Assembly: GCA_965242695.1 (NCBI GenBank)
Contig: CBDESU010000002.1
Coordinates: 448,001-512,000 of the forward strand
DNA from: Cenarchaeum sp.
GTDB taxonomy: Archaea > Thermoproteota > Nitrososphaeria > Nitrososphaerales > Nitrosopumilaceae
Direction of reading: 5' to 3'
DNA length: 64,000 nucleotides
A program made the position numbers and the translations under genes. Shown piece after piece: positions 9,741 to 38,704 of this stretch. Under the pieces are notes generated by a model. That model saw nothing but the letters and a program-made list of their open reading frames with translations, searched no databases and had not been told where the DNA came from. Each line of letters opens with the position of its first letter. The first letter of the stretch is position 1.

Positions 9741-10201
9741 GCCATGCTCAGCTCCGTGAACACGTAGTATTCGCCGTCCCTGGAACTCCTCTTGACGAAC
9801 GATCCGAATGTCCTGACGCCCCCGCGCCGGAAGCACACGAACAGCTCCCTCTTGGAGACGGACACGGACGCGAGCGAGCGGTAGCGGCTCGCCCTGCGCG
9901 CCATGGCGGTGCGGTGCCTGGCAAGCAGGTCGGACGCGGTCACGCCCTCCCCGTAGTAGAGGCGCATGCGGCCTGCCACGCGCCGCTCCACCCTCAGGCC
10001 GGCGAGTATGTTGCCGACGCCCCTGTCGGCGCGCACAAACTCCATCGTGCAGCCGTGGCAGCGGAGGTACGACTCGGGCCTGCGGATATCCAGGAATCCG
10101 CCCGTTCCTCCCACTGTCACGCCGAGCCTTGCCCAGGCGAGGATCGGCCGTACCCGGTGCGCCCTGCCCCCGCAGAACGGGCAGGTGCGGGAAGAGTCCA
10201 T
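9737..10201 (-). CDS. Zn-ribbon protein (CPFC...CHGC), cassette copy 1, 154 aa
   Basis: ATG at 10201 preceded by TTTATTAC. End-to-end similar to 43785..44258. Its stop overlaps the next start. Confidence 0.8.
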   Translation of the reverse strand: MDSSRTCPFCGGRAHRVRPILAWARLGVTVGGTGGFLDIRRPESYLRCHGCTMEFVRADRGVGNILAGLRVERRVAGRMRLYYGEGVTASDLLARHRTAMARRASRYRSLASVSVSKRELFVCFRRGGVRTFGSFVKRSSRDGEYYVFTELSMA

Positions 10202-10224
10202 GGAGGGGGCGGCCGGGGCCTGTG

Positions 10225-10232
10225 GTAATAAA
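10225..10232 (-). promoter_or_regulatory. Archaeal-type TATA-like box TTTATTAC
   Basis: AT island in GC-rich DNA, 24-31 nt upstream of ATG 10201. The same 8-mer occurs 23-30 nt upstream of paralog start 44258. Confidence 0.6.
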
Positions 10233-10509
10233 CAAGGACGAGTGATGAGGTGGGCGGGCGCTCGGGGAGACGGCAGGGAGGCCACGGCGGCCCGCCCCGC
10301 AGCAGGGGCGGCGCGGCAGGGGCGGCAGGGGCGCCTGTAGAGGCCGCCGCCCCGCATGCGGCCGTGTCGGCGCACCGACGGGAGGGCGTGCCGCAGCCGC
10401 AGCCGCAGCCTCCGCCGCTCCGGCGGCGCGTGGGCGGCGTCATTCCGGCGGGGCGCAAGCAGGGCTGCGCCTATCGCCGGCTTTGGGGCGGCCGCCGCGG
10501 ACGCCCCCC

Positions 10510-12586: not shown

Positions 12587-15500
12587 TTACCCATCCAAGC
12601 CGCCTCCTACGCCGCCGCCTGCTCCCGAGTAGGGGTTTTTCCCCTCGTCCTTGAGGGACTCGGCGACGGGGTCGTTGAGGGCGACCAGGCAGTCGACAAT
12701 CCACGCGTACTTGGCGCGGTGATCCGGGAGGGCGCCGTCCGGCCGTTCGCATGTCGAGGCCCTGTATAGCAGGTGCGACACCATCTTGACAGTGGCATCG
12801 GAGAGTCCCGATGTGTCGGCCTGCTGCAGCACCTGCCAGAGCCAGCCGATTCCGCGGGAAAGCAGGAGCGCGGGGGGTGCGTCGGCCAAGAGGGATGCAA
12901 CGGCCTCGACCGCATCCCTGTTGCCGGCAAGCGCCGCGCACCACGACGATATCTCGGCGGCAAGCCCCTCGACAACCTCAAACCTGCCCTCGTCACCGGC
13001 GGCTTTCGGGAGGTCGGCGAATATGAGCAGGGCAAGGATTGATTTTTTCACCCGGTTGTTGCGGTAGTGCCAGGCCGCAAGCCTGGGCCCGATCACCCGG
13101 GGCAAGAGGTGTTTCCATGCGGCCAGCAGGCCTGCCCCCCGGCCTGCCCGCATGCCCCAGATGACGGTGTGCCGCATAAAGTACTCCAGCAGCTGGGGGG
13201 CCGCCTCCCACTGGGAGGCAATTTTGTCCAGGATGCTGTCGCGAAGCTCGGGCCGGCTCTCAGTGTGCGACTCTAGAACCCTGAAAAAGTCGGGGCACCA
13301 CATGTTGCGGAACAGCGGATAGGCCCCCCCGTAGGCGCGGCTCTCTTCGAGCTCCTTGAACACGGCGATCGTGTCGTCTAGCATGTCGTCGATGATGCGC
13401 TCCAGCTTGCGCTCGGTGCCGTCGTCTACGGGAGGGACGTCGCGCAGTGCGGGCAGCACGGCTGTGCGCCCCGCCCAGTCAGCGTGCGACCGTCCGTCTC
13501 CATCCTTTTTGTCGGGGAACCGCCGCCTCGCCCTTGCGATGCACTCCAGCACAAGCTTGTCTTCGCGGCCCCAGAGGACGCAAAGCCCGCGCATCAGGGA
13601 TTCAAGCACCGCGTCGTTGCGCGCATCGGCAAACTTGCGGATCGCATTCCTCGCGCCGCGGCCGCGGCCGCCCCGAAGGTAGCAGTGCGGGAGGGCGTGC
13701 GCAACCGGCTGGGCGGCACTGTAGCGATAGGACGGCCCGGCCCGCGGGTCGATCGTGTTCGCCATGCCCTCAAGGTACTTTAGGCATGCGTTGGCCACGC
13801 CCATTTTGACCGCCTCGTCCCAGCGGTGGGCGACCATGGCCCCGGCCAGGCCGGCCCTGCCGTGCGCTGCGCCGTCTTCGTTGTATCTGGGCCGGGACGA
13901 CAGGAAGCCGCCCTCCGCGGCCTGCTCGGCGTACTCTAGCGCCGACTCTATGGTGAAGGCTGGCCCGATCTCGTTTTTTTCGATAAATGTGTTCAACCAC
14001 ATTGCAAAATCCGACGCTTTTTTGCGAGCCGTCGCCCGCCTCTCTGCCTCTTTTTCGCCGTCGGTAGGGAACCGCCCCTTGTCGAAGGCCGTCCCTGTGG
14101 CCCCGCCGGAGGCTTGGGCGGAGGCGTAGTTGTCACTGTGTGCTACTTTTGACCATAATTCGCAACGCCTCCGGCGTTCTTTCATGGTTTTTTCGTCATT
14201 GACGTCGTCCTTGAAGAAAACGGGGACACAGCCGGGGAAGGCCTCGAGGCCAGCCTTCATCCTGCTCCGGGCTTTATCGGGGCCGTCAAGGAGCAGTCGA
14301 GGAGCAAAACCGCTCAGATCACCTAGCTTGCATCGTCCGCTCGCATGCTGGATTGCCAAATCAAATTTTCTCTCTGATATTTCTCTCCCGTCCGACTGCA
14401 TTGCACGTGTGCGGAGAATCTCGATGGCCACCATGTCTGCCCTTAGCCGCTCTGCATCCATTATCCAAAACGCCGGGTTTAGCAGTATTGGCAGGATGGC
14501 CTCTGCGGTCTTGTCCATGTGCCCGAGGGCGACAGTGCAGCAGACGCCTACGACGGCCGCAGAGTTGGTCGGCTGCAGGACCCTGTCAAAGAGGGCCGTC
14601 GCCGCTTCCTTGCCGTTCTTGATCTGGCTATCAAGCCACACCTCCAGCGCCATCAGGGCCGATGCCACCAGGTTGGAGGCTCGGGGGGCGTGGCCGCCCC
14701 ATGCGAACGCGTATTCGTCGCCGTAGACGTAGACGGGGCCGGAATCGAGGCTGACGGTCTGGGGCACCGGGATGCGCGGGGGTTGAAGAGGGCCACCCGC
14801 CTCCCGTGCCCTGCGCCACTCGCCGGTGACGTGGTTCAGCAGATTGTGCACGAGCGCCAGGCCGTGCTCTGGATGGAATGCCAAAAAGGGAAGGAATGGC
14901 CCCTCATGCGGAGAGGGCAGATCGGTCCACCCGTCGTCGCATATTTCCGGTATGTCTTTGAGCGGCCCAAGGGAGTCAGGGCCTGTGCACATGGCGCGGG
15001 ACAGGACGTCGACCGCAACGCCTGGCAGGAACTTGCAGAGGTACGCCCAGCCGTATTCTTTGGTCAATCCCCGCTTGAAGTGCTCATTGCCGACGATGGA
15101 GGGGCTACCCGATATGAACTTCTTTACCAGATCCGGCGCGGAGGCGGACGAGTACATGATTGTTGCAGCGACAAGGCCTTTGATCTCGTCCGATTCGCCG
15201 TAGTCCCGGCCGAGGATCGCCTCGCCGCCGCGCAGCCAGCCCGCATGCTGTACGGCATACCCTGCGATGCGCCTTTTCAGATCGTGGTTCGCTCCGTTGC
15301 GCGACCACCAAGCGGCCGTCCTTATGAACTGGGCAATGGCCGCACCGCCAAGGCCCTCCATGTTGTCCAAGGCGAACGAGAGGACGGGCGCAAACCTCTC
15401 GTCCCTAGGAAGCTTGTAGTACGCAGGATGCAGGCCCGGCTCCACAATGCCATGCTCCTTTGCGGCCAGAGCCCAGTACGGGTTATCCCTCAGAAACGCG

Positions 15501-17599
15501 CTCGGCAGCGCCGCAAGCAGCTTTGCCAAGAGATCCCCGCCGTTCCTCAGAAGGACGCCGGAGATGGTGCCCAGGTTTGACCAGGCGACATCAGAGTCGG
15601 CCGCCCCGAGCAGGCACTCGCGCGCCCAGACGTTCCTGTTCCCTAGATGCCGACAGTCCTCAAGGAGGGCATTCCACTCGTCCACCGAGGCGTCCGCCTC
15701 TAGCATCTTGGCGGCGCATATCCGCAGCGGGCGGACCAGCCTGCGGGTGTTCGCGCTCCCCTCAAAGAGGGAACGGCGCGGCCGCGCCCACTCGATCATC
15801 CTCGCCAGTGCATAGTCCTCGATCACGTCGTGCGCAAAGGCGAGGCGGTTGCCGACTATTCTTGCAAGCCCGTCCGTCAAGAGGCCGTCGACCGCGTCTG
15901 GGTCTAGATCGTGCGGGTCCGCGGGCGGGAGCCCCCTGTACGCCCGCTTCGCCATGTCGACCAGGATCTTTTCCCTGTCTCGCCCATGCCCCCTTCCCTC
16001 GCGCATCCCGACGCGCCGCAGGACTGCCTCGTTCCAGAACAGGTCAAAGAGCCGCCCCTCGCCGACGGCCCCGGGCACGCCCTCGGAGGTGGCTGGCAGC
16101 CATCTTGCGATCATGTCCAAGTACCCCGGAAGTAACAGGAGTGCGCCAAGCCGTCCCCTGATGGCGCCGCCGAGCTGCGGCAGCTGCCGGCACACCTCGC
16201 CGATCTCCTCGTCGGTGAGCGGATCGACTTCCAGAAGGGAGGGGCGGACGCCGCCGCACCACTGCGCGATCGTCCCCGCCACGGCCTTCATCTCCGTGTT
16301 CCTAGATGTCGCTATGATTTTCCACGCCGCGCCTTTGTCCGACGCAGCCGACGCGGTGGCCCTTGCGTTGTAGTCCGATATGGCAACGAGCAGGCCCTTG
16401 GCAACCTGCGCCTTTTTGGGCTCATACGAGACGCGGTCTAGGCCGTCGATGACTACGTACCGATGCGGGGCCGTTCCGTGCGTCTCAAGTATATCCTCCA
16501 GGCTGGAACGCACGCCGAGCGAGGTGAGAAGCGCCTCTGGGCTGCCACTACCACCGAGGTATTCCGTCCCAAAGAACATTACCGTGCCCCTGCCCGACAT
16601 CTTCTCTGCAAACAGCCTGGCAAGGGCAGACTTTCCGGCGAACGGCTCGCCGTGGATTATCGTCACTGCGCTGGTTTTGACAACCTCTTCAAGCCTCTCT
16701 AGGAGGGGGGCGCGATCCAGTGCGACTTTATTCCCTACCGCCTTTCCGATTCCCGCCATGACGGTGCGCGAGTGGGCGTCGAGGCGCCCCGCATCCGCCC
16801 CGGTCCCTGCGTGGCCGGCAAGGTCAAAGGCGGAGAGCCGCCCCCTCAGGGCCGCCGGTCCTATGGATCCGCCCGTTGACGCCAGGTCGGCCGCCACCCC
16901 CCTGAGGGCATCGAAGAGCTTTGCCGCCTCGCCCCCGCCCGGCTCTGCTAGAGCCCTGCGGCACATTTCCACTGCATTGGTGTAGCCGGCGGCGTCAGGG
17001 CCGTCCATGTCGAGCTCGATCAGGTGTAGGAGCCTGAGGAATCTCCACATGTCGTCGTCTGTCGCTTCCGATCCGGAGGACTCTGTGACCGTGCCTTTGA
17101 TGGAGTTGGCAAATTCGAGCCGGTGCTTGGAGTGGCCGCCGTCCTTTAGGCTGCCCCAGAAGGCGGCGCTGTCCGCGCTGTCGCGCGCCATTTCGGGGAC
17201 GAGGAGGCGGTGGCGGTAGGAGTCGCCGGGGACGGGGGACATCACTATCCCGAGCAGGTCGGCGGACCGGTCAAATGCGATGCCCTCGCCGCCGATGAAC
17301 ATCTGCCAGCATTCGGCGATCACGCCCCTGAAGTCGGACGACGCGCCAGGCCGCAGGCCGTGCTTTACCTGGAGCGACAGCTTGTGCGCGCCGCCGTCCC
17401 TGTCGAATGCGACTACGAGGTCGTCGAGGAGGTGACCGGCGGGGCGGCGCTGGAAGCGGACCTCGGTTATTGTGCCGGCCGCCCCCGGCGCGCCTTCCCC
17501 GCATGCCATAGCGGCAAGGTACACCGCCGCTACCTTGCGCTCGTACTCGTACCCCCCGCCCCCCGTGGAGAACGGGCTTGCCTTGGCCCCGGCTCCCAT
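12587..17599 (-). CDS. PD-(D/E)xK nuclease-STAND NTPase (Avs-like), ~1670 aa
   Basis: N-terminal SPFSTGGGGYEYERKVAAVYL...LDDLVV...SLQVKH nuclease-like signature, Walker A GEPFAGKS, Walker B VVIDGLD, FAHDVIEDY. Start reassigned to ATG 17599. Confidence 0.85.
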   Translation of the reverse strand: MGAGAKASPFSTGGGGYEYERKVAAVYLAAMACGEGAPGAAGTITEVRFQRRPAGHLLDDLVVAFDRDGGAHKLSLQVKHGLRPGASSDFRGVIAECWQMFIGGEGIAFDRSADLLGIVMSPVPGDSYRHRLLVPEMARDSADSAAFWGSLKDGGHSKHRLEFANSIKGTVTESSGSEATDDDMWRFLRLLHLIELDMDGPDAAGYTNAVEMCRRALAEPGGGEAAKLFDALRGVAADLASTGGSIGPAALRGRLSAFDLAGHAGTGADAGRLDAHSRTVMAGIGKAVGNKVALDRAPLLERLEEVVKTSAVTIIHGEPFAGKSALARLFAEKMSGRGTVMFFGTEYLGGSGSPEALLTSLGVRSSLEDILETHGTAPHRYVVIDGLDRVSYEPKKAQVAKGLLVAISDYNARATASAASDKGAAWKIIATSRNTEMKAVAGTIAQWCGGVRPSLLEVDPLTDEEIGEVCRQLPQLGGAIRGRLGALLLLPGYLDMIARWLPATSEGVPGAVGEGRLFDLFWNEAVLRRVGMREGRGHGRDREKILVDMAKRAYRGLPPADPHDLDPDAVDGLLTDGLARIVGNRLAFAHDVIEDYALARMIEWARPRRSLFEGSANTRRLVRPLRICAAKMLEADASVDEWNALLEDCRHLGNRNVWARECLLGAADSDVAWSNLGTISGVLLRNGGDLLAKLLAALPSAFLRDNPYWALAAKEHGIVEPGLHPAYYKLPRDERFAPVLSFALDNMEGLGGAAIAQFIRTAAWWSRNGANHDLKRRIAGYAVQHAGWLRGGEAILGRDYGESDEIKGLVAATIMYSSASAPDLVKKFISGSPSIVGNEHFKRGLTKEYGWAYLCKFLPGVAVDVLSRAMCTGPDSLGPLKDIPEICDDGWTDLPSPHEGPFLPFLAFHPEHGLALVHNLLNHVTGEWRRAREAGGPLQPPRIPVPQTVSLDSGPVYVYGDEYAFAWGGHAPRASNLVASALMALEVWLDSQIKNGKEAATALFDRVLQPTNSAAVVGVCCTVALGHMDKTAEAILPILLNPAFWIMDAERLRADMVAIEILRTRAMQSDGREISERKFDLAIQHASGRCKLGDLSGFAPRLLLDGPDKARSRMKAGLEAFPGCVPVFFKDDVNDEKTMKERRRRCELWSKVAHSDNYASAQASGGATGTAFDKGRFPTDGEKEAERRATARKKASDFAMWLNTFIEKNEIGPAFTIESALEYAEQAAEGGFLSSRPRYNEDGAAHGRAGLAGAMVAHRWDEAVKMGVANACLKYLEGMANTIDPRAGPSYRYSAAQPVAHALPHCYLRGGRGRGARNAIRKFADARNDAVLESLMRGLCVLWGREDKLVLECIARARRRFPDKKDGDGRSHADWAGRTAVLPALRDVPPVDDGTERKLERIIDDMLDDTIAVFKELEESRAYGGAYPLFRNMWCPDFFRVLESHTESRPELRDSILDKIASQWEAAPQLLEYFMRHTVIWGMRAGRGAGLLAAWKHLLPRVIGPRLAAWHYRNNRVKKSILALLIFADLPKAAGDEGRFEVVEGLAAEISSWCAALAGNRDAVEAVASLLADAPPALLLSRGIGWLWQVLQQADTSGLSDATVKMVSHLLYRASTCERPDGALPDHRAKYAWIVDCLVALNDPVAESLKDEGKNPYSGAGGGVGGGLDG

Positions 17600-19120
17600 G
17601 CGAGGGCGTGGCAGGGCGGCTATTTGTGTCTGTTGCGGAGCTCCATTCTGCGGGCGGGGCCTTGCGGGGGGGCGCGAAGCAGAGTTGCGAGGCTTGGAGG
17701 CGGCCGCGCGGTAGCATCCCCGCACGGTTGCGCATGCGTCTCAATTGAACGATGCCCTTGGACATCCCGCGCCGGCTAGCCGCGGCAGAGATAATGGACG
17801 GGGGCCCGTCCCACGAATGGACGGCGTATCAGGGGCATGCCGGCCCGCATCTGCGGCAGAACCGCTTGTCGCACGCACACCCGGCGCTGCCCATGGGCGT
17901 GCGCACGCCGACGCGGTACTCAGCCGACTCCCCCATGGCCTTCCGCGGGGGCCGAACAGGCTGCGCAGGCGCGAGGCACGCCGCGGGCCAGGGCCTTGAC
18001 ATCCCCTCAAGGCTTGGCACACAAGCTGAGCGCGCCGGTGGACGGGTGGGCATCTATCACAACTGAAACGACCGCCTGCCGTGCTCCCGTGTTGTAAGCG
18101 TCCTGCGGGCGCAGTGCAGGCGGGCTACATTGCACCTTGCCTGCCCGTAATACCAGCCGGTAGTATACCGTGGCGTCTCGCAAAAACCTCGGCCGGTGCA
18201 TGGTACCAGCCAGCGTCTGCCAACGGCATGCAGGGGTTGCGGCCGATCTCCCCCCCTCCCATGTGCCCTATTTGGCTCGACAGAGTGCGATGCAGAACGG
18301 CTCAGACCGAAAGATTCAAAAAGTAAGAGCCAGCGCGGCGCTGTGGCGGCAGGGCGACATCAGCCCCTCTGCCCATATCGCTCGACCCTGTCGCCTGCCT
18401 AGGCAAGATGCCAGGCCGAAGGCGCGAGCGCGGCGTCCTAGACGGGGCGCCCAACAGTCATGCAAGCCGCCGGAGACGGTTCGTCAATCAGGGCGCGGTG
18501 GAGTGTGCCCCCGCACAGGACACGTTTTTTTCAGGCAAGGCATGGGCTACAGCGCGACACGGCGCGGTGGCACCTGCCGCCACTGCCATAACGAGTCGGC
18601 CTGGCGGCAGTTCGACTCGTCAGTGCCCATACTACCGCGCATACTTCCAGCCTCCCCGACATGTACACGTCGGGGGCCAGACCGCGCGGCACGGTACAAT
18701 CGCCAACGACGCAGCAAGGCAGATGATGAGAAAAATATAGGTGGGACAATTTGTTTGTCACCATTGCATCATTCAGTCGCAGATGCATGCCAAAAAACAC
18801 ATCAAGATGATGTGGTCATTGGGCTACATCATTTTGTAGACTGAGTCGACTACTAGCAACGATGCCTTTGCGCGTCGAATGCGGTATTTTGTCATGCGGT
18901 TCAACACCCCCTGCCCCCCGTCGCCCGCCATACTATATAAAGCCTTCAGTGACATCCGGTAAATGGGGATAACCTACGAAAATGAATAAGTCATGACTAT
19001 GGTGGATCAACGAAAATACTACACAACTCAACTATCCTAATGGGCAAGATCGTGTAACGGTTTGTGGATCCCAAAATATAGGTAATTGGTTTAGATAGCA
19101 AATGCATGGAATGCATGAAC

Positions 19121-19264
19121 GGCGGGAATGTGGGGATTGCTGGGAACATCCGAGGGATCTGGGTGGCGGGAATGTGGGGATTGCTGGGAACATCCGAGGG
19201 ATCTGGGTGGCGGGAATGTGGGGATTGCTGGGAACATCCGAGGGATCTGGGTGGCGGGAATGTG
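19121..19264. repeat. 44-bp perfect tandem repeat x3.3 (GGCGGGAATGTGGGGATTGCTGGGAACATCCGAGGGATCTGGGT)
   Basis: Identical copies at 19121, 19165 and 19209, with a partial copy at 19253. No spacers. Confidence 0.95.
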
Positions 19265-19744: not shown

Positions 19745-20755
19745 GTGGATACGTGGACGGATTACATTCACAGGGGGTCGCGGGAGGCGCGCGTGCGCAG
19801 CCTGGGCTTTGGCGGCAGGGAGATTTTAACGCCGGCCTATTTTCCGTCCGTTTCAAGCCTGTCTCTGAGAATGCCGTGTCGGTCCGCGGTAAAAGTGTGC
19901 AAGGACGCAGGCTATCCGCAGATGCTGGTATCCGCGTATGATCTAGGCGGGATGGGCGCGCCAATCCTCGAGATGCTGTGCGAGTACGCCGAGAAAGGCG
20001 TCCTGCTTGTGGACAGCGGCGCGTTCGAAGCACACTACTCGGGCGGGAAGTGGGGCTTTGACCGCTACGAGCGGTGCATCAAGGCAATCCCCTGCTCCAT
20101 CTACGCAAGCTACGACACAATGCCCAGCGCCCAAGACACCTACGACGCCATGCTGGACAGCGCATGCGACTCTCTTGGACGCTCCTCCGGCATCCGCCCC
20201 GAAAGCAGATGCATGGCAATACTGCACGGGAGTAGGCCCGACGAGACGGTCAGGATGGCAAAGGACATCAGCGCGGGCGGCGAGCCGCGCATGTATGCGG
20301 TGCCCGAGAGGGAGATGGGGAGCACTATAGGCAGCAAGATCAGGACCACTGCAAAGATACGCAGAATACTGACCGGCCGGGATCCCGACAACATACTGCA
20401 CGTGCTAGGATGCGGCGACCCCGTGCTGATGGCCTTGCTGTCGTACGCCGGCGCAGACACCTTTGACAGCGTCGACTGGTCGAGGTGGGCGATCGATCCC
20501 TCGACGTACGAGTGGGTCGGCATTGACCGCCTCGAGTTCATAAGGTGCGAGTGCCTTGCATGCCTGGATGGCGACACAACCCGCATGCAGAGTCGGGCGC
20601 TAGAGCACAACCTGCTGTTCTACAGCGAATTCATGGCGCGGCTGAGGGACGCGATTCTGGCGGACCAGGACTTCGGCTCGATCGGACTCGGCGTTGACAG
20701 CGAGGCACTGGCACGCCTGTCCAAGTGCTTTAGGGACGGGGAGGCTCCCGCATGA
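19745..20755 (+). CDS. tRNA-guanine transglycosylase (TGT)-family protein (DpdA/Cap10-like)
   Basis: Motifs ARVRSL...ILTPAYFP, LVDSGAFE, ASYD, AILHG, LHVLGCG, GADTFDS and Zn site CECLAC...HN. About 336 aa with no PUA extension. GTG start 19745 (alternative 19793). Confidence 0.8.
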   Translation: MDTWTDYIHRGSREARVRSLGFGGREILTPAYFPSVSSLSLRMPCRSAVKVCKDAGYPQMLVSAYDLGGMGAPILEMLCEYAEKGVLLVDSGAFEAHYSGGKWGFDRYERCIKAIPCSIYASYDTMPSAQDTYDAMLDSACDSLGRSSGIRPESRCMAILHGSRPDETVRMAKDISAGGEPRMYAVPEREMGSTIGSKIRTTAKIRRILTGRDPDNILHVLGCGDPVLMALLSYAGADTFDSVDWSRWAIDPSTYEWVGIDRLEFIRCECLACLDGDTTRMQSRALEHNLLFYSEFMARLRDAILADQDFGSIGLGVDSEALARLSKCFRDGEAPA

Positions 20756-21230
20756 CGGCCACGTCCGGCGCCTCCCGCCTAGGCGCATGCTCAGCGGCGA
20801 GCGGGGGCGCGGCGCCGAAAAGAGGCGGCAGGGGGGCGCGGCGCGGCGCTTCGCATGTAGGCAGGCGGGGGCGGCCGAATGCCGGATCGCGGAGGTCGCG
20901 GTCGGGGCGGAGTTCGGGCCGGCCGCCAGGCGGCCGAGGGGGCGCACCTACAGCGGGAGGCCGAAGGAAGCAAGGCTCCGGCCGCGCTCGAGTGCGGATG
21001 CGGCAGGGGGGCGCGGGCGGCAGGGCGCTTTGGAATGAGGGAGCGGGAAAGAGGGGGCGGCCGTCGGATCCGGTGTGCGCTGGTGCGGCGGCCGAGTGCC
21101 ACTATTGCACGGCGCTGCCCGCCCTGTGGAAGGGATCGCTCGCCGCAAGGAGGCAAGAAGCATCCCAGGGATGCGGGCGCGAGAGGGGGCACCGGCGATC
21201 TGTCCGGAGCCGACCAAGGAGGGGGCGGCT

Positions 21231-21851
21231 ATGAGGATCGTCTGCCTCACGTCGGGTGGGGTCGACTCTACAGTCATGCTTCACGTGCTATCAAGGCGCA
21301 ACGAGGTGGTTCCGCTGTTCGTCGACTACGGGCAGAGTGCCGCGCGCCGGGAAAAAAGGGCGGCCGTCGCGGCGTGCGCGCCGCTGCGGCTGCGGCCCGC
21401 AGTGGTCGGAATCCGCGGGCTGCGCGCTACACGCGCCGCGTGGGCGCACGAGGCGGCGGGCAAGCGCCAGGCCCCCGAGGCCCCCGGCGTGACCCCCTCC
21501 AGCCCGTACTTTCCCAAGCGGAACATGCTCCTGCTGTCCGCATCGGCGGCATTCGCGAGGCTCAACTCGTGCAGGGTTGTCGCGATCGGGGTCATTGGGG
21601 GGACGGGGTACGGGGACCAGACGGAGGGGTTCGTCAGCAGCGCACAGTCGGCGCTCTCGGCCGACGGCGACATTGCCGTAATGGCCCCCCTTGAGGGCAT
21701 GTCCAAGATAGAGGTTGCGCGCCTCGCAAGGAGCAGCGGCGTAGCGCTGGGAGCCACATACTCGTGCGACAGGGGAGGGGAGAGGCACTGCGGCAGATGC
21801 GACGGCTGCAAGGATCGGCGCGCGGCGCTGAACGAGGCGAGGCGGGCATGA
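21231..21851 (+). CDS. queC: QueC-family 7-cyano-7-deazaguanine synthase-like ATPase
   Basis: Motifs SGGVDS PP-loop, VDYGQ, YFPKRNMLLL, APLEGMSKIEV and YSC...HCGRCDGCKDR. AGGAGG lies upstream of ATG 21231. Confidence 0.9.
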   Translation: MRIVCLTSGGVDSTVMLHVLSRRNEVVPLFVDYGQSAARREKRAAVAACAPLRLRPAVVGIRGLRATRAAWAHEAAGKRQAPEAPGVTPSSPYFPKRNMLLLSASAAFARLNSCRVVAIGVIGGTGYGDQTEGFVSSAQSALSADGDIAVMAPLEGMSKIEVARLARSSGVALGATYSCDRGGERHCGRCDGCKDRRAALNEARRA

Positions 21852-22399
21852 TCCGGGCGCCCCTGCATCGGCGGGCTGCCAGCGCACGCGCTGACTTGGC
21901 GAAAGGTCCGGGCCCGTGATCCCGGTGGCGGGAATCGCTCTACGTACGAGGGGCAGAAGGGCCAGAACGAACCCCGGCGCAGCCCCATGCGTGTGGCTGG
22001 CGCGGACAGGCGGCCATGCAGGTGTGGGGAACGGCTTGAGAGATCCAGAAGGTTGGTGTGCAAGACGCATGGTGTTTGATGCGCCCGCATCGACAGAGAT
22101 CAAATCGCGGCGGGCCTTGCCGCGCCCGGCGCCGTATGCGGCGATCCGGAGCGGCGGGCCCAAGCGGAGGAAGGGCCGGCATTCCTGGCCGCTGCGCCCC
22201 TCCGGCGCCACGGAGCCACTGCGCCAGCGCTACAAGGAGAAAAATCGAGCATGCTGGGCGTCACGGCGTAGGCATCGCCGCAAGGCCGATGGGCAAGGGG
22301 GTTCGGCAAGACAGGCACGGGCACCGTCCTAGCCGTGTCGGGCCCAGGCACGGCATCATGTGGGCGTCCCGCCGCACATGCCGCCCTTCCCGGTGTGCA

Positions 22400-22885
22400 C
22401 TACTCCAATGCCTTGGCGATCTGCTTAGCGTTCCACGGTATGACCTTGTCTCCGTGCTTGCTGATCGCGGTAGGCACCTTGTGATCCACGTCGCTGTGCA
22501 TTCTCACCCCTACGACTTTTTTGCCTTGCCTGTGCGCCTCTTCAATCTCCCATGCGACCGATTTGCTCTTGTGGGTGTGCTCCCCTATGGCCACTATCAT
22601 GGCGCTTGTCTGCTCTAGTTTTTCTGCCACCTTTTGCTTCCACTTTGTCTCGATCCGCTCCTTGACGGAGTAGTCCCTAAAACGGAACGGGAATCTCTCA
22701 TCCTTTGCCTGGCTGGCCAGCAACCGAACCTGGCGCTTGTCCTCATCGACATCAAAGCTTACGAAGACATTGCGCTGCTCAGAGACCCTCTTCCGGGTGG
22801 CATCCTCCCTTGCCCTGACTTCGCGGCGCAGCTCATCGGCGCTCTTGGCATGAAATTGGTCAAGGCCTAGGCCACCTGCGCCCAT
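22400..22885 (-). CDS. ThsB-like TIR protein (MTH538/DUF1863) with Gly-rich N-terminal extension
   Basis: RNVFVSFDVDED...DYSVKE...MIVAIGEHTHKSKSVAWEIEEA...KKVVGV, with the catalytic Glu retained. TTAAAAA lies 24-30 nt upstream. Confidence 0.85.
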   Translation of the reverse strand: MGAGGLGLDQFHAKSADELRREVRAREDATRKRVSEQRNVFVSFDVDEDKRQVRLLASQAKDERFPFRFRDYSVKERIETKWKQKVAEKLEQTSAMIVAIGEHTHKSKSVAWEIEEAHRQGKKVVGVRMHSDVDHKVPTAISKHGDKVIPWNAKQIAKALE

Positions 22886-23223
22886 GCGCCGGGCCGACCA
22901 AAGGCCGGTTTTTAAGTCTTGCCATCGGCCTGTCAGGATCTAGGCCCCACGCATGACGCCTGCGACAGGGCCTGCGGCGAGGCGAAGAGCCACCGCGAGC
23001 GGCAGTCCAAGGCATGGCAGCCTGCCGCCGCGGAATCGGCATGCCTGCCGCCGCTTGAGGCCCAGCTCCCTCACGCGGCAGCTTGCACCGGCATCCTGTT
23101 GAACCACTCTCCCTCATACATCACGGATCCACAACCCAGCCGACGCCGTACGGTAGCGGGCGCCTTGTTAGCGACGGCCCAGCATTTTGCAAGGCCCGCG
23201 GGGTGGCCCAGGAAGCAGGCGCC

Positions 23224-23745
23224 TCAGGGAGTCGCCCCTGCAGACAAAAGACTGGGGTACAGGGCGTATATTACGTAAAGCGCATACAGAATGATGAAGA
23301 TTGCGGGCGTCACCAGCTCGCCCATTGTCAACTCCCTGTATCTAGAGCTCCCTCGCTTTAGAATGTTCCATTCCCTGCTGTAGAGGTCTAGGGGCAGGGT
23401 TTTCTCGACATCTAATGCGACGCTCCACTTTGCCTTGGCCAGCGATCGATACGACAGGATCGTGACCAGCCAGTTGCCTCCAAGCACAAGCCCGATTACG
23501 CCCGCTGGCACCCAAAGGGGAGATGGCCCGCTCAGGGGAAACAGCCCCGCCAGCATCGCCAGTGCGGCCGCAAGGGCCGCATTGGCGCTGAGGTAGAAGT
23601 TGTTGGTGTGGGCGCGCAGCCGTTCTCGGCGGCCTATGTCGTCGACGTACATGCGGTACTGCTCAAACGCCCTGTCTTCGTCTCCCGCCCTGCGTCCTGC
23701 CGCATCCCGCGCGGACGCGTCTGGCTTTGGTGGATCGCCGGGCAT
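23224..23745 (-). CDS. Small multi-TM membrane effector (RipA/8xMP- or SLATT-like)
   Basis: FEQYRMYVD...RAHTNNFYLSANAAL, TM helices, SYRSLAKAKWSVALDVEKTLP...EW and a C-terminal TM helix. Confidence 0.75.
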   Translation of the reverse strand: MPGDPPKPDASARDAAGRRAGDEDRAFEQYRMYVDDIGRRERLRAHTNNFYLSANAALAAALAMLAGLFPLSGPSPLWVPAGVIGLVLGGNWLVTILSYRSLAKAKWSVALDVEKTLPLDLYSREWNILKRGSSRYRELTMGELVTPAIFIILYALYVIYALYPSLLSAGATP

Positions 23746-23754
23746 GAAACAACA

Positions 23755-24231
23755 CTACGATAGCTCTTGGCAGATTAGATCGACGTCCCAGTTGATGACC
23801 TTCAAGCCCTTTAGTGCGGACGGAAGGCCGTGTCCTGCATCGGGGCAGAGTCGAGCCCCCAGAATTTTCATGTTCAGGGCCTGGGCCGCTTTGATCTCCC
23901 AGTCGACTACCGTGCTCTGGTGCGTCCACTCCCCTACGACCACAATCACTGCCCTGGCCTGCGACACCTTCTTGCGGATTTCCTCCCGAAGGTCTGGAGA
24001 CGGCAGCTCTCCTGCAGGATAGTCCCTGTATGCGAATGCAAGCCGCTCGTCTTTAACCTCCGAGACAAGCCGCCTTACGTCCCGCTCGTCGCGCGCATCA
24101 AAGCTGAGAAAGACAGGCCTTCTGGACGCGCGCTTGCGCGCATCCTCCGCGCGCGCGTCAACCACGGCGCCTGCCTCCGCCCCGCCCCTATCCGGCTGGG
24201 CGTTGTTCTGATCGCCCCCAGGTCTCCCCAC
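23755..24231 (-). CDS. ThsB-like TIR protein (paralog of 22400..22885)
   Basis: RPVFLSFD...VIVVVGEWTHQSTVVDWEIKAA...KILG. GTG start with CTATAA 24-29 nt upstream. Confidence 0.85.
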   Translation of the reverse strand: MGRPGGDQNNAQPDRGGAEAGAVVDARAEDARKRASRRPVFLSFDARDERDVRRLVSEVKDERLAFAYRDYPAGELPSPDLREEIRKKVSQARAVIVVVGEWTHQSTVVDWEIKAAQALNMKILGARLCPDAGHGLPSALKGLKVINWDVDLICQELS

Positions 24232-24718
24232 GCCGGCAGGCCGGCAGACCCCCCTTATAGACGATGGTCACGGTAGGGGCGTGCTTCCGATGGGCGGACG
24301 CGCCAATTCTGGCTCCAAGAAGTCCATGTGAGCGTTCGTTTGCAATGTCCAAAGCGAGACCGGCACGTCACGATGCCCTGTGCCTGAAGGTGTGCTGGCC
24401 CGCATTGTCGCAAACCGCCTGCTCTCGCCTACGAGCCTAAGTCGAAGGTAGGACGCAGCAGCAGCCACATCCCAGAAACGCTCCGAAGGCCTAGACCGTA
24501 GCGTGGATTATAGTGTCGGCGGATGGGCGTCGCGGTCTAGGCAAATGCAGTCAGACAGCCCAGGTTCTAGCCCATGTGCATAGTTTGCTGGTGCCGGCGC
24601 GACGCAGCGGGCCCTCTCGCGCCGATTTTGAGCGGTTCAAGCGCCGGCGCGCCGGCAACCACGCGTTGCCTTGCCGCGTTCGGTCGGGATGCCCAGTGCC
24701 AAATGCTGTAAAGCATTT

Positions 24719-25831
24719 TCAGAGCCCAGCTTCCGCATCCCACAGTTGAACATATTCTAATACCCTGTTCGCGATTTTGTGAGATGTGTCTGAATCAAGG
24801 CTTTCCTGTATGACGAGTATCCTGCCACGTCCGCTGCCGTCGTCGTTGCGCAGAAAAAGGTCGCTTGTACTGCCAGGTGCATCAATCAAGACAATATCCG
24901 TGTATTCTGGCATGCTCTTTTCGATTGTGTTTAGAGCGTCGGGATCCACGACAATGAGCAGCTTTCCAGCGTCAAGCAATTCTTTGAATTTGGCTGTAAT
25001 GTACACGTCTCGGAGCGAAAAGCCTACCACAATGCATGCGTCAGAAAGCCCCAGGGCGGTGGAAAACGCCTCGAATGTGGTGTTATAGGGTTCGTCGTCA
25101 ATGAACTTGGGGGATCTTGACGGGTATATGAGCAGATTGCCGTAGTTTTTGTCGCGGGACAGTTCCTCGCTTTCGTTTTTCACTATTCCACCCATCGCAA
25201 GGTTGCTCCTCCACGTAAGCGATCCGTGCAGCTTGTACAGGCGGACACGGCGGGTGCCCTCCTGTTGATCTTCGTCGCTGAACACATTCCCCGGCGGGTA
25301 GGGCCAGCCAGTCCAGACATACTTCCCGCCCGAAGGCACAAACCCGTCCACTAGCTCGATTTGGGGGTCTGCGATGTCGCAGTACTGCTCCACGCTTCGA
25401 TCATAGTTGGTGGTAAAGATGTTGACGGTTTTGCTCAGCCCTTCCAGCATGGCAACCAGCGGGCCAAGCGTGTGTTGAAGGGCGTCGTTATACTCGTGGT
25501 TCCACGCATAGGCCTCGTATAGCTCGTTTACTAGAACATGGTATGCGTTATATATAATATTAATCTCATTTTTAACTTGATTGTTGTACTCGGCATAAAA
25601 TCTCCCCCCGTCGTTCTGTGCCAGCGCGGCTAGATCCTCCACTACGCTGAAAACGGCCTCGACATCCTCGTGCTGGGGTGAAGACAGTACAGCATGCCAG
25701 ATGTCGCCCCGCTCTGTCTGTTGGAGCAGGGCATCTTTGAAGGCCTTGGTCGTCGGCTTGCCGTACGGAGCAGACGCACCCGCGCCTAGGAACAACGAAG
25801 CGTTCACGAATCGGCGGGCGGGGGGCGGCAT
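24719..25831 (-). CDS. SIR2-like (SIR2_2) putative NADase
   Basis: Motifs FLGAGASAPYGKPT, IFTTNYD, LYKLHGSLTW and CIVVGFSLRD. Start set at ATG 25831. Confidence 0.85.
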   Translation of the reverse strand: MPPPARRFVNASLFLGAGASAPYGKPTTKAFKDALLQQTERGDIWHAVLSSPQHEDVEAVFSVVEDLAALAQNDGGRFYAEYNNQVKNEINIIYNAYHVLVNELYEAYAWNHEYNDALQHTLGPLVAMLEGLSKTVNIFTTNYDRSVEQYCDIADPQIELVDGFVPSGGKYVWTGWPYPPGNVFSDEDQQEGTRRVRLYKLHGSLTWRSNLAMGGIVKNESEELSRDKNYGNLLIYPSRSPKFIDDEPYNTTFEAFSTALGLSDACIVVGFSLRDVYITAKFKELLDAGKLLIVVDPDALNTIEKSMPEYTDIVLIDAPGSTSDLFLRNDDGSGRGRILVIQESLDSDTSHKIANRVLEYVQLWDAEAGL

Positions 25832-27073
25832 ATCAAGGTTCGCTCTGGCGTGACCGTCCCAATGGCAGGAGTGCAAGCCCCTAGCAACATGTGCGCCGCC
25901 CTGCGCGCTTCGACGGCGCCATGGGCTGTCGGACGCAGGCCCCTAGCCTTAGGTTCAGGGCGCTGCGGCCAGGCTTGGGCATCCTGCACCCGCCTCCTGC
26001 GCCGGCGCCTCGCGCATAGATCGGCAGGGGCGGGGTCATGCCGCCCGCTGCGGGCCCGTGCGAGGCCTGCAGGGTGGGACCGCAGGGGACGAACAATTGA
26101 CGGCCGCAGGGCGGCGTCGACGCCTCACCGCTCCCACGCCCCGCGGGCGCTCTGCCTGCGCAAAAAGCGGCGGACATCCATGCGGGTGCCCAGGCGCACA
26201 ATGCACGGCCATCAAGGCCGCCTCCATTTGAACGAAAAATTAGTAATTCTAATCAATAATAGTGCTTAAATACAACCTGGATGGAACCCGATGCATGATC
26301 GAGATGGCAGCGGCAGGATTGTTGCTCTGCACAAACGGGCTTGCCGCATTGGAGCCGCATGTGCAGCAGATTCTGGGCGTAATTGCTGGCTGGGATGCCC
26401 ATACGCTTGCCGGCAACCTGGCAGTGGCGTGGATGCTCTGCCGCGCCTGCAGGAAGACGCTGGGGATGGTGCGCCGCTGCGCCTTCTGTGCGCGCCGCTC
26501 GTCAGGCGCCAGGCGCGCCCGACGCCACGCCGGATGCGGGCGTGGGAAGAGGCGGCTCCCGCGATTCAAGAAGAGGCGGAGGAACGTCCCCGGCTCCAAC
26601 AGGGATCGTCGCGGCAAAGGCGGCGGCCGCGTCGCGTGACGCGTGCCATCGCCTTTTTTGTTCATGGCGGACGGGAAGAGTCCCCCGGCACGCAGCCCGC
26701 CGACGGCTGGACGGATCGCGGTTCCGCAGCGGTTCGCAGGACGACTCCTTGCAAGGAGGCGGGGGATGACGGCCCGGGCCTGCCTGCAGGGCCCGCGGGG
26801 ACGGCAAGGGCGCGGATGCGCAATGCAGTTCCAATCTGGCCCGAAGGCGTGCTGTGGGGGCGGCAATCGAACGTAGCGGCAGTCCGGCGGTGGCGATATG
26901 CCCCTTGTGATCTGCCCCCTGTCGGGGATGCCGCTGGTGGCGCCGATCGAAGCGGCTATAACGAGTGCGTGGGGGACTGGGCAGAAGGCTGAAATGATCG
27001 CGATAGAATGCTGCGGCGTCCAAGCGAGCAGGGGGCGTGACCCGCACGGTCTGGATCCCTGTTCGCTACCGTC

Positions 27074-29297: not shown

Positions 29298-32200
29298 CTA
29301 GTCCGGGCGCTCCATTGCGGCAAGCAGGGCTAGCACCTCGGGCCATCCGGCCGCCGCGTATATGTCCAGTACGTCAAGGCAGCGCCGCCACTCGCTGTCG
29401 CCGGGATGATACAGCTCGATCATGCCCGATATGATGTTGGTTGTGCACTGTGCAAGGGCCGGCTGGTGGGACAGGTCTGGCCGGCTGCCCGCAACCGCCT
29501 CCAAGCAGGACAGGGCCACCTCGGGGATCGCATGCCAGTGCGCCTCAAGGAATCGAACGGCGTGCTCGGCCGTCTGGAGATCAAACTGCCCGCGGCCGAA
29601 CAGCGATGCTAGTAGGCCCAGGTGTGGCGTAACCTTCCTTGCGTAGGCGTGACTGCCTGCGTGTGCATCGTCGTTGCCGTCAATGCCGTTGAACGCAAAG
29701 AACACGGCCTTTGACCGCACGACGTCCGGCCCCGCCTCGATCATCCTGTAGAGGAGGTCAAGGGCGGCGCCCTGGTGGTCAGGGCTGGACAGGTACGGCT
29801 TTAGCGCAAAGGGCATGTCAAGACGGATGTCGCGGAACTTGACTTCGGCCGCGACCCGGTCCAGCAGGGCGGCGGCGCGCGGATCTTTCTTTTCCAGCGC
29901 AAGGTAGAGGAGGAAGTTGGTGGTGCCCGGCATCGGCGGGCCTCCCGCCACAAGCATGTTCTCTATTACCGCAGAGGCCTGCGCGGGGTCCTTGTTTATG
30001 ACAGCGTCAAAGCGATCGCCTAGGAAGAAGCGGACGCGAAAGTCCGGATCGCGGCTGTATTCCAGCAGTATTGGGTACGCCAGGTCGTAGCGGGCTGGGA
30101 TGAGATGCGCCAGGCCGCGTGCGATGCCTCCGCGGACCAGGTTGGAGGGGTCTTTCGACAGCTCGCGCAGGGCATTCTCTGTGGCCTCGCCGCCCCGCAT
30201 CGCGACAAGTCGTGCAATGCACAGCGCGGCCAGGCTGCGCACGCCCGGGTGATCGGCCAGGAACTTGGACGGCTCATCCGCCACGTCACCCTCAGGATCA
30301 GGATCCCTGCTGCTCTCCAGCAGGCATTGCTCTACCATGGGCAGGAGTCCGGCATCGATTGCGTCGCTGGGGCTTTCTAGGTAGGAGGCAATCGATTCGA
30401 GCAGTGCAATCCTGCCCTTACGATCCTGCCCTTTGCCAATCATTGAACGGATCGTATCTTCGGGGCTTTGCAAGGGCACGTCCGGATCGGGTATTTTATG
30501 AAATTTAAAGTCCTGCGGCAACAGGGGCTGCCGGTCGGCAGCAGCTCGCGGGCGGTGTGCCTTGACAAGCTCCAAGTGCTCGCCTCCGAGCATGTGCTCT
30601 GGAAACACCGCCAGGAACTGCGCCCGCGCCCGGCCGCTCCGCAGCTTGACCGACCTCATCCTGTCCTCTGGAGACTCGTCCGCTCCCAGGGCCGCCAGTA
30701 TGTAGTCTGCCTCCTCGGGGGAGAACATTCCACCGGGCGCGTCGGCGAGCAGCTGCGCCCTCAGCCTATCTGCATCCTCCTCGGTCGGCCCGGGCTCGCC
30801 CGCAGGCGGCTGGTTGGACTTCATTATGGCCCCCAGTATCCGCGACAGCTGGGCGCCGTCAAGCGCCCCCGCAATGCTGCCGATCGCTCCCTTGATGCTC
30901 GCCTGCATCGAGTGCAGCTCATAGACGCGGGGGTCGGACAGCTCGTCGACTAGCCTGTTCAGGTGGGAGGCTCCGCGGAGCGCCATGCCTTCGATGAGCA
31001 TGGAGCGGAAGGGGGCCATGTGGCTGGCGGCAAGCAGGAGCGCAAGCCTGTCGAACTCGGCGCCGTCGCACTCCTCAAGGTGGTGCCGCACTGCCGAGAC
31101 GACAGCGCCCTCTGGCATTAGGATGCGCTGGAATGCGTCGAAGTGGACATCGAACAGTGCGCTTGGATCGGAAGGAGCTGCCGCGCGGGTGCGCTCGGCG
31201 GCCTGCACCGCGGCCTTGATCATTGTGCCGGGGTCGTCTTTTAGCATGTCCGGAAACATGCGTTCAAGGCTCCACTTTATCATTGCATTGTCTTGTACAG
31301 GATTGCCCATAAAACGCATCGAGCCGGCGTCTGCCATGACGGTCGGCTCGCTGGATGTCTCTTCGTACGCGAGTAGGTTGGCGAACATATCGGGTACCGA
31401 GCCTGGAGTGGTACGCAACAGCCCGGGCAGCAGCTGCGCTACCCCGGAGCGCACCTTTACATCGGCAGACTTTGACGCCTCCTTTAGCCATGTCACCTTA
31501 TCTTCCGCGTCGGCCTTAGCCATAGACTCTACCGCTTGTCGTCGCGCAGTGCCGTTCTGGTTGTTCTCTGCGATGAGCCTTAGAAGGTGAAACGCGCTCG
31601 GATTGGCGCCCGAAGCGGCCGACGCCGCCACTACCCGTACGTAGCCAACGATAAAGGCCCCGTTCGGGTTGTCCTTGTCGCCGGCCCAGTCTTTTAGGAA
31701 TGTGTCTCCCCACGCGCCGAGCCAAAAGGCATTTTTCTTCATGGCGGCCTCAATAAGAAAGTGCCTTTGCAGCATGGCCTGTTCGGTCAGCAGCTGGCCC
31801 ACCCCATTGTAGCCGGCCGCGCTGCCGTCGCTCACGCGCGCCAAGGCCGCGGCGGCGGCCATCTTCCAATAGTGCTTGAGGCTGGAGCGGAGGATTCCCG
31901 CGGTGAGCTTGGAAAACTCTCGGGGCGACCTTTCGTGCGCCATGGCAAGCATGAGCGGGAGCGAGGGGCGGACGAACAGGTTGTGCTCGTCCGACCGGAG
32001 GAGACCCATGACGCCGGATTGATCCTCAAGCGTGGCCCGCGACAGGACATAGTCCAGGTAGGCGTGGTGGAAGAACGCGACGCGGCCCGTGTGGCGGACG
32101 CGGCGCAGCAAGGTGGCGCTCTGGGCCAGGTATGATGCGCCCGCATCGCCGAGCTGGCCGAGCGGGACGGCGGTCCTTGCGGCCTTTGCCATGGCCCTTG

Positions 32201-35853: not shown

Positions 35854-36020
35854 CTAGACCCCTCCCGTTGCGCCCCTCCCCGCCCGCCGCGGGCGGGGAG
35901 GAGGGCCAGTGCGTCTGCCATTCCCGGCAGCTGCCACCGCCGTGCGCCGCCTCCCTGCGGCGGTCGGCGGCGGCGCTCGGGTGCATCCGGCGCGGGTGAA
36001 ACAAGCGGCGAGACGGGCGG

Positions 36021-38054: not shown

Positions 38055-38056
38055 TG

Positions 38057-38704
38057 CTAGATCGAACCCCCGTTGCGGCCAGCCGACCGCGCGTCGGAGT
38101 CGTCTTCGGCCCTGCACGGCGCAATAGAAATGTTTCTAACTGTACGTTGGGTCTTGCCGTTCAAGACTTCAAACTGTAGAGATGGTATGATGCATGTTTC
38201 CGCCACGATCGATACCGGGCTGTCAGCCATATGGCAAGTGATTCTCGCAATGTACTCTACATGGACCCGGTACGTGGTGTCCGTCCCTAGCTTTAACACC
38301 GATTCCCTGGAGAACAGATCATCCACAGTTGTGGTTCGATCGAAAAAAGTGCTCGTGGTGCCCACTTTAAGGCAGGTGATTGCCACTTTCTTCCCTACAC
38401 GCTGTCTAAACCACTTGTTCTCAAGGAACTCGACGAGGTCGGACAGCATGGCAGTGCTCTGCATCCGTGCAAGGATCCAGCTGTCGGTCGTCTGCGCTCT
38501 TGTCTTCGGGAAGAGTGTCAGAATGTCACCGAACCTCCCATCGGCGCCAGGCGTGGCGTGCGGGTGTGCCTTGATATGGCAGATCATGTCGTCAAGCCCC
38601 ATGTGCCGGCCACAGATGCAGCACTTCCCCGCCGATTTGGGCTGACGCGTGGGGCTATCGACGGGTGTGGCGGCGCGTGGCACTCCGTGTGTAATTCCTG
38701 TCAT
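38057..38704 (-). CDS. C2H2-like Zn-finger protein with divergent pRiA4b ORF-3-like region
   Basis: CCICG...MICHIKAH, followed by WILARMQSTAMLSDLVEFLENKW. Confidence 0.5.
   Translation of the reverse strand: MTGITHGVPRAATPVDSPTRQPKSAGKCCICGRHMGLDDMICHIKAHPHATPGADGRFGDILTLFPKTRAQTTDSWILARMQSTAMLSDLVEFLENKWFRQRVGKKVAITCLKVGTTSTFFDRTTTVDDLFSRESVLKLGTDTTYRVHVEYIARITCHMADSPVSIVAETCIIPSLQFEVLNGKTQRTVRNISIAPCRAEDDSDARSAGRNGGSI

Follow-up and report, generated by a model that had tools for sequence, protein, structure and literature searches.

What do a QueC-family gene and a TGT-family gene do beside a set of TIR genes in an archaeal genome? The question is raised by a 64,000-nt stretch of Cenarchaeum sp. 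DNA (contig CBDESU010000002.1), here called the window; all coordinates are those of the whole window. Five genes form a cassette there. Two of them lie on the plus strand: a TGT-family gene similar to Cap10 (19745–20755, start codon GTG, 336 aa) and a QueC-family gene similar to Cap9 (21231–21851, 206 aa). The other three are on the minus strand: TIR1, a glycine-tailed gene of the ThsB type (22400–22885, 161 aa), a gene for a membrane protein of the 8xMP family (23224–23745, 173 aa), and TIR2, a diverged duplicate of TIR1 (23755–24231, 158 aa if the GTG at 24231 is the start codon). The TIR module is thus inverted relative to TGT and QueC. The cassette is probably a Thoeris-like TIR signalling defence that is regulated by the helper pair of type IV CBASS (the antiphage signalling system based on cyclic oligonucleotides).

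Genes were called by the listing of open reading frames (ORFs), a plot of G+C content by codon position, and family scans with Pfam and PADLOC. The E-values are 1.7e-18 (PADLOC TGT, PDLC00913) and 1.1e-6 (Pfam TGT) for TGT, 1.6e-32 (Pfam QueC) and 3.8e-31 (PADLOC QueC, PDLC00911) for QueC, 2.4e-17 and 5.4e-11 (both ThsB_TIR) for TIR1 and TIR2, and 1.6e-24 (Pfam 8xMP, PF24838) for the membrane protein. An earlier note on this DNA, made from its letters alone, had listed the same five genes, and they are all borne out. As it had described, the two sets converge, and the stops of QueC and TIR1 are 548 nt apart (intergenic region 21852–22399). Contigs of the three runs X1, X4, and X5, which come from two studies, cross this junction without any difference. 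The note had also recognised no CD-NTase, queD, queE, or dpd gene, and none is found among the 26 larger ORFs of the window. The CD-NTase family is absent both from 11 proteins of the region, scanned with Pfam and PADLOC, and from 15 further large ORFs of the window.

Linkage of TIR genes with QueC and the glycine tail

A TGT profile scan over one genome per species returned 208 relatives, and the locus counts given here refer to the best 80 of these 208. QueC is present on the TGT strand in 76 of the 80 loci; the other four are cut contigs. In 75 of the 76, a TIR gene follows QueC on the same strand within 2 kb. The exception is L014, a Dehalococcoidia metagenome-assembled genome (MAG), where TGT-Cap11-QueC occupies 6770–9034 and no TIR was found behind QueC. 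The usual order is Cap10-Cap11-Cap9-TIR-effector with all genes co-directional, and the gene behind TIR varies. The linkage of TIR with queC, which the earlier note had left to be looked for elsewhere, is therefore widespread in these loci.

In 17 archaeal loci, the gene behind TIR encodes 8xMP according to Pfam, on the opposite strand in 3 of the 17; an 18th (L015) was detected by tblastn only. The closest named relatives of every cassette gene are from Nitrososphaerota and other archaeal MAGs. Both TGT and 8xMP are rare. A TGT homologue is present in 3 of 201 genomes sampled from the order, the own genome counted, and 8xMP exceeds the cut-off in 4 of 401 genomes sampled from the phylum. Because two such rare genes are cassette-mates here and in 17 related loci, their association is more than chance.

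A contig of run X6, labelled sponge metagenome, carries a diverged relative of the cassette, which is also referred to as X6 below. The homology is limited exactly to 19757 and 24322. The convergent layout is identical, and the flanks differ. TGT is about 85.5% identical with one in-frame 3-nt insertion, and the part from QueC to TIR2 is about 96% identical. The remaining indels are all intergenic, one of them being a 1-nt deletion at 22150 between QueC and TIR1. This block-wise conservation indicates that the five genes travel together.

The TIR proteins next to QueC share a distinct N-terminus. Among the 75, 73 start with Met-Gly, mostly as MGG(G/S)(G/S)GG; the other two start with MSGG and MTAGGGGG. 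A script counted a start codon followed by [GS]G in 72 of the 75, one of which had been picked at a wrong upstream codon. The tail is followed by an extension of about 27–42 residues with a helix, as described for the CBASS cyclase, and both TIRs of the window have a long extension. As a control, the 10 other TIR ORFs of these loci were inspected, and the glycine tail is seen in none of them, including both TIRs of a cassette in genome G151. The tail thus goes with the QueC/TGT helpers. It agrees with the acceptor motif of type IV CBASS cyclases, which is M(G/S)G(G/S)GG according to the available text of Wassarman et al. (bioRxiv 10.1101/2025.04.06.647259).

TIR1 begins with MGAGGLG. Its ATG is the first start codon of the frame, and the 161-aa sequence matches an existing gene call. 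In two relatives, the first 21 residues are unchanged and 5–7 of the 161 positions differ (96–97% identity). The relatives with these TIR1 proteins have TGT and TIR2 homologues that are only 78–79% identical. TIR1 is 57% identical to the QueC-adjacent TIR of L001. In the tree, TIR2 sits on a long branch as the sister of TIR1, with a support of 100/75. If it is read from the GTG at 24231, the first start codon of its frame, it begins with MGRPGG and has a 38-residue extension; 13 codons upstream of this GTG, the frame is bounded by a TGA. P0088, a relative of TIR2 with 78% identity, is called from an upstream ATG that is absent in the window, and Val-Gly is kept there at the position of the GTG-GGG of the window. 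The residues D71 and E113 (in WEI) are invariant in 69 aligned TIRs including TIR1 and TIR2. E113 is presumably the catalytic Glu of TIR domains.

Each TIR may have its own promoter. A TATA-like box, TTAAAA, is read at 22910–22915 on the minus strand, 24 nt upstream of the TIR1 ATG. Another, TATAAG, is read at 24254–24259 on the same strand, 22 nt upstream of the GTG at 24231. The box of TIR1 might be an archaeal promoter that gives a leaderless transcript.

Relationship to Cap9, Cap10 and known defence systems

The best match of QueC among the sequences of the Protein Data Bank (PDB) is Cap9 (9nto_B, 9.2e-17), compared with 2e-5 for canonical QueC. It scores 92.7 bits against an NCBIfam cut-off of 150.3. 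It retains SGGxDS (S8, D12, S13), R97, and the zinc cysteines C179, C187, C190, and C193. Y127 and D129 are also retained, which correspond to the base-reading pair Y115/D117 of Cap9. Its match to QatC models is weak: 1.4e-4 in PADLOC, and 21 bits in NCBIfam, where the cut-off is 280 bits. In place of the SGLT loop, it has a different loop with a 10-aa insertion. Since this change is common to the 7 close relatives, the most distant of which have about 60% identity, and the rest of QueC is conserved, the alignment indicates that the remodelling of the loop is a trait of the clade and not private decay. In the G+C-rich QueC clade P0075–P0082 (alignment A6), the SGLT loop is swapped for a variable insertion rich in Gly, Ala, Arg, and Pro, which differs in length.

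The best PDB sequence match of TGT is Cap10 (9ntn_A, 4.5e-7), compared with 2.2e-5 for arcTGT, the archaeosine enzyme. Its start agrees with an existing gene call (P0001), and the coding signal in the G+C content of third codon positions begins at about 19800. TGT was paired with Cap10 by the sequence alignment of the two and its motifs. D90, D124, H219, and D241, which correspond to D73, D122, H226, and D248 of Cap10, do not vary in any of 40 homologues, and 38 of these also have S91 (S74 of Cap10). In Cap10, these five are the base-reading and nucleophile residues, according to the available text of Wassarman et al. (bioRxiv 10.1101/2025.04.06.647259). The AlphaFold2 (AF2) model of TGT has a pLDDT (predicted local distance difference test) of 93. 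Its top Foldseek matches are arcTGT (1iq8, 5.8e-17) and Cap10 (9ntn_A, 1.0e-16, with 22% identity, the highest), so that the predicted fold alone cannot separate the two. TGT is under the NCBIfam cut-offs for arcTGT (33.2 against 350 bits) and tgt_general (25.7 against 47.6 bits). A scan of metagenomes with TGT yielded a single locus, L106, which is distant; close relatives were not found.

Fusions of TIR and TGT account for 19 of 73 TGT homologues (proteins P0052–P0072, 406–493 aa). TIR is N-terminal in them, mostly with no glycine tail. Of 13 fusions inspected, 11 are full length; 10 of these begin directly at the TIR strand, and one begins with MGTG.

Housekeeping copies are found elsewhere in the genome: QueC with 157 bits and TGT with 256 bits in the Pfam models. 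The housekeeping TGT sits in a 665-codon frame, like archaeosine TGTs. The genome (3.89 Mb in 2 contigs) also has a full-length match to the archaeal model of the small-subunit rRNA (1450 bits), although bacterial controls respond to this model too and it is not decisive by itself. With the archaeal relatives of the cassette genes, an archaeon is the most likely host. There are also a QueE-like radical-SAM gene beside the housekeeping QueC and a QueD/PTPS gene. Based on this gene content, 7-carboxy-7-deazaguanine should be available in the host. The earlier note had asked whether the QueC and TGT of the cassette group with housekeeping enzymes. With Cap9 and Cap10 as the closest solved proteins, scores below the NCBIfam cut-offs, and separate housekeeping copies in the genome, both can be classed by sequence as enzymes of the defence kind.

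In type IV CBASS, Cap9 attaches 7-amido-7-deazaguanine to Gly2 of the cyclase and Cap10 binds the product, as described in the available text of Wassarman et al. (bioRxiv 10.1101/2025.04.06.647259). QatC and QatB follow a similar logic (PMC13279940, in its available part). Yirmiya et al. (bioRxiv 10.64898/2025.12.03.692087) list 29 putative Thoeris types in a figure and tables, and the accessible text describes Thoeris operons with cap9, cap10, and cap11, in which AlphaFold 3 (AF3) docks the TIR on Cap10 and Cap9. The kind of system to which the cassette belongs is, on this account, already known. ThsB-type TIR, effector, QueC-like, and TGT-like proteins occur together in both, and the proposal that TIR replaces the cyclase is likewise made there. 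The example of the preprint, Pseudomonadales SP163, is L073 of the present set and has the same TGT family. What the window adds is a variant. It is without Cap11, the TIR module is inverted so that the layout is convergent, the TIR is duplicated and both copies are tailed if TIR2 starts at its GTG, the host is archaeal, and the effector would be 8xMP, whereas that of L073 is SLATT. The accessible text of the preprint gives AF3 models, not the conserved N-terminal Gly tail documented here. The QueC-family preprint PMC13082051 is without the terms TIR, Thoeris, TGT, Cap10, and SIR2.

The likeness to type IV CBASS itself lies in the SGGxDS motif, the Tyr/Asp pair, and the zinc site of QueC, in the counterparts of the Cap10 residues in TGT, and in a partner whose N-terminus is a tail rich in Met-Gly with a helix behind it. 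Compared with the system as published in the available text, the partner here is a TIR and not a CD-NTase, TGT has a zinc motif, the tail is MGAGG, and the QueC loop is remodelled. QatABCD (PMC13279940, available part) also combines a QueC-family enzyme with a partner whose flexible MG... N-terminus is needed for Qat defence. However, QatC has Thr/Thr instead of the Tyr/Asp of the QueC in the window, it contains extra domains, and there is no QatA, QatB, or QatD here. In type VII Thoeris, composed of a TIR and the SLATT effector ThsH (bioRxiv 10.64898/2025.12.03.692087, accessible text), a small multi-pass membrane protein, presumed to be an effector gated by the signal, is directly behind a ThsB-type TIR, as is 8xMP here. 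Yet no similarity between the profiles of 8xMP and the SLATT proteins of L070, L073, and L074 is detectable.

Taken with the linkage, the Met-Gly tails, and the kinship to Cap9 and Cap10, these comparisons support the suggestion of the earlier note that TIR takes the place of the cyclase as the modified enzyme; the modification itself is proposed by analogy. It can be proposed that the Cap9-like QueC activates 7-carboxy-7-deazaguanine, derived from the archaeosine pathway of the host, with ATP. After removal of the first Met, QueC would join the 7-deazaguanine to TIR1 at the free amine of Gly2, and probably to TIR2 in the same way. The Cap10-like TGT would take the tagged N-terminus into its base pocket, and might either keep the TIR primed but inactive or hand it to some target. 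Upon virus infection, the TIR would make a NAD-derived signal. This signal could open or assemble 8xMP, and the cell would be stopped.

The role of 8xMP as the effector is presumed from gene position. The protein has three hydrophobic spans (50–75, 76–99, and 138–170), and its AF2 model (pLDDT 80) has four long helices. No Foldseek match was found for the model at E <= 0.001, and the comparison of the 8xMP profile with PDB sequences gave chance-level rows only. It matches no effector family named for Thoeris types I–XI in the accessible text of Yirmiya et al. (SIR2-SLOG, Macro-TM, DUF2270, DUF6650, SLATT, CMP hydrolase, and others). Nothing relevant was found in a literature search for 8xMP, octameric membrane protein, or PF24838. 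The one pointer towards SLATT is a language-model neighbour of 8xMP at rank 6, to be taken as a lead rather than as a test. Among 401 genomes sampled from the phylum to which the genome of L032 (Methylocapsa acidiphila) belongs, 15 have 8xMP over the cut-off, and in 4 of the 15 a TIR is directly upstream. If the reading is right, the 8xMP family gains an effector position behind TIRs.

In some bacterial loci, other genes take this position. SLATT is behind TIR in some loci (L070, L073, and L074). A TPR-S / MAP3K_TRAF_bd protein of 420–500 aa is behind the tailed TIR, mostly directly, in nine bacterial loci (L020–L024, L033, L062, L075, and L079). Further TIR-domain proteins are present in L020, L030, and L062, and that of L020 is fused to NB-ARC and TPR repeats.

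The deazaguanylation of proteins was discovered very recently, and a single cyclase is the case shown to date. If TIRs are indeed regulated likewise, this modification would serve bacteria and archaea alike as a general switch for enzymes of immune signalling. The locus itself adds a variant and no new principle. The family offers natural contrasts: tailed TIRs beside QueC/TGT versus tail-less TIR-TIR-8xMP, systems with and without Cap11, and the TIR-TGT fusions.

Points against and alternative explanations

Several observations weigh against a CBASS-type regulation of the TIRs. TGT/QueC and the TIR module are convergent in the window and do not form one operon. Cap11/OGG was not found in the window by comparison with 75 ORFs from the Cap11 position of the relatives. 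The tail of TIR1, MGAGG, keeps Gly2 but has Ala instead of the Gly of the motif at position 3. In the database, the gene call of TIR2 (P0087) puts the start 22 codons further in, at MVDARAED. The earlier note had both TIRs starting with MG. This stands for TIR1 with its first start codon and conserved tail; owing to the conflicting call, the Met-Gly start of TIR2 is plausible but not certain. TGT has the zinc motif CxCxxC...H (C268, C270, C273, H288; among 40 homologues, 28–31 have the cysteines and 39 have the His), whereas the solved Cap10 is described as having no zinc site. At columns that are at least 90% conserved, QueC deviates in 7 of 39, being the second most divergent of 77, TIR2 in 11 of 28, and 8xMP in 3 of 19. 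The alignment of 8xMP with SLATT (L070/L073/L074) has an hhalign probability of 0.2%, and 11 of the 15 bacterial 8xMP loci are without a TIR neighbour. A literature search for deazaguanylation and Cap10 with Thoeris found only the Yirmiya preprint and reviews, and no experiment on the TIR type. Finally, the predicted complex of TGT and TIR1 scored 0.39, with 0.00 for the best of three controls. This lends weak support to a contact between the two, and the runs disagree (0.11, 0.57, and 0.39; contact agreement at least 0%, partner pLDDT at least 65). Of 80 solved complexes, 58 attain the mark used for such predictions, as do 2 of 110 mismatched pairs; with a score of 0.60 or lower, it is attained by only 7 of the 80 and by both of these mismatched pairs.

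Alternatively, the cassette could be a decaying remnant of a Cap10-Cap11-Cap9-TIR-8xMP operon, which has lost Cap11, was rearranged, and is drifting, so that the helpers no longer act on the TIRs. The inverted TIR module, the replaced SGLT loop, and the strong divergence of QueC, TIR2, and 8xMP at conserved columns, which ranks them with the most deviating members, are in line with this. So is the position of Cap11, which is taken by a non-conserved G-rich spacer. In the relatives, the gap between TGT and QueC holds an ORF of at least 200 aa in 70 of 76 loci, and all eight that were tested are Ogg-HhH (Cap11). In the window, this gap (20756–21230, 475 nt, plus strand) is 46.7% G. It contains an Arg/Gly-rich ORF at 20752–21234, whose 160 residues include 34 Gly and 34 Arg and which overlaps the TGT stop and the QueC start by ATGA. 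Despite these overlaps, it is probably not a conserved gene, because it is not an existing gene call and the stretch is replaced or diverged in X6. But Cap11 is dispensable: its deletion left type IV CBASS defence unaffected, and it is present in about one third of the systems (bioRxiv 10.1101/2025.04.06.647259, available text). All five frames are intact and the catalytic-type residues are kept. Seven relatives, the remotest at about 60% identity, have the loop change in an otherwise conserved QueC, and TIR1 is 96–97% conserved. The X6 indels are intergenic, and among the 40 differences listed of the 266, 21 are at third codon positions. A remnant of this kind is thus unlikely.

The convergent genes could also be neighbours by chance, that is, a plain TIR-8xMP module of the Thoeris type beside a QueC/TGT pair that modifies nucleic acids, Dpd-like or related to archaeosine. 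TIR and 8xMP can stand without helpers. The genome G151, which belongs to the family of the window, has a TIR-TIR-8xMP cassette without QueC/TGT at 9287–10546 of L104, and its TIRs have no N-terminal extension; TIR-8xMP pairs also occur in bacteria. The zinc motif known from nucleic-acid TGTs is present in TGT, and its fold resembles arcTGT and Cap10 to the same degree. Against these stand the single cassette formed by the five families in 17 archaeal loci and the preservation of the block 19757–24322 in X6 between different flanks. The Gly tail is limited to QueC-adjacent TIRs, both TIRs of the window have the long N-terminal extension, and the housekeeping enzymes are encoded elsewhere in the genome. 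In PADLOC, which presumably includes Dpd models, no such model was matched by the 11 proteins of the region, and the neighbours are TIR, 8xMP, SIR2, and STAND. Chance neighbourhood is therefore very unlikely.

Two extensions are compatible with the preferred reading of a TIR defence regulated by Cap9/Cap10-like helpers. The helper pair might have clients besides TIR1, namely TIR2 and an Avs4-like STAND protein encoded in the flank (12587–17725, minus strand). The 38-residue extension of TIR2 is of the usual length and its Val-Gly is conserved in P0088. The ATG of the STAND gene at 17599 reads MGAGAK, as the earlier note had pointed out, and an AAATA box is 21 nt upstream. The frame is, however, open back to a GTG at 17725, so that this start is not fixed. 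Met-Gly is common at the G+C content of this genome, and no link between STAND and QueC was seen in the 80 loci, of which the first two ORFs behind TIR were scanned. Such additional clients are quite unlikely. The other extension, which is doubtful, is broader. The Cap9/Cap10 pair would be a tagging hub acting in trans on two tailed TIR paralogues, each under a promoter of its own, and perhaps on STAND. 8xMP would be an undescribed class of effectors gated by a TIR signal, and the Cap11-less, zinc-keeping, loop-remodelled enzymes would form an archaeal branch of deazaguanylation.

Surroundings of the cassette

The DNA around the cassette is rich in G+C (63%) and forms a defence island. Next to TIR2, a SIR2 gene of the SIR2_2 family (24719–25876, minus strand, 385 aa) had been overlooked in the earlier note. 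It matches PADLOC SIR2 models with values up to 3.2e-20, and scores 38.7 bits on NCBIfam SIR2_antiphage, below the 500-bit cut-off. It was considered as a member of the system and rejected. SIR2 is without a match in the 80 related loci, and the homology to X6 stops at 24322, before SIR2. These facts indicate that it is outside the block.

On the same side, a giant gene of the TIR-STAND-HEAT type (29298–34118, minus strand, 1606 aa) with an internal TIR flanks the cassette. A second giant of 1669 aa with an internal TIR and HEAT repeats is at 5226–10235 on the minus strand. Other defence-type genes of the window are GmrSD (3692–4834), an AAA_15/OLD-like gene (34045–38117), and TPR-Schlafen (41002–44241).

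No inverted repeats bracketing the inverted TIR module were found, but only short imperfect pairs. Direct repeats are present on the other side of the cassette. A 44-nt unit occurs in three perfect head-to-tail copies at 19121–19264, about 480 nt upstream of the TGT start. Contigs of runs X1, X4, and X5 break at these copies, which adjoin an A+T-rich stretch (18700–19100).

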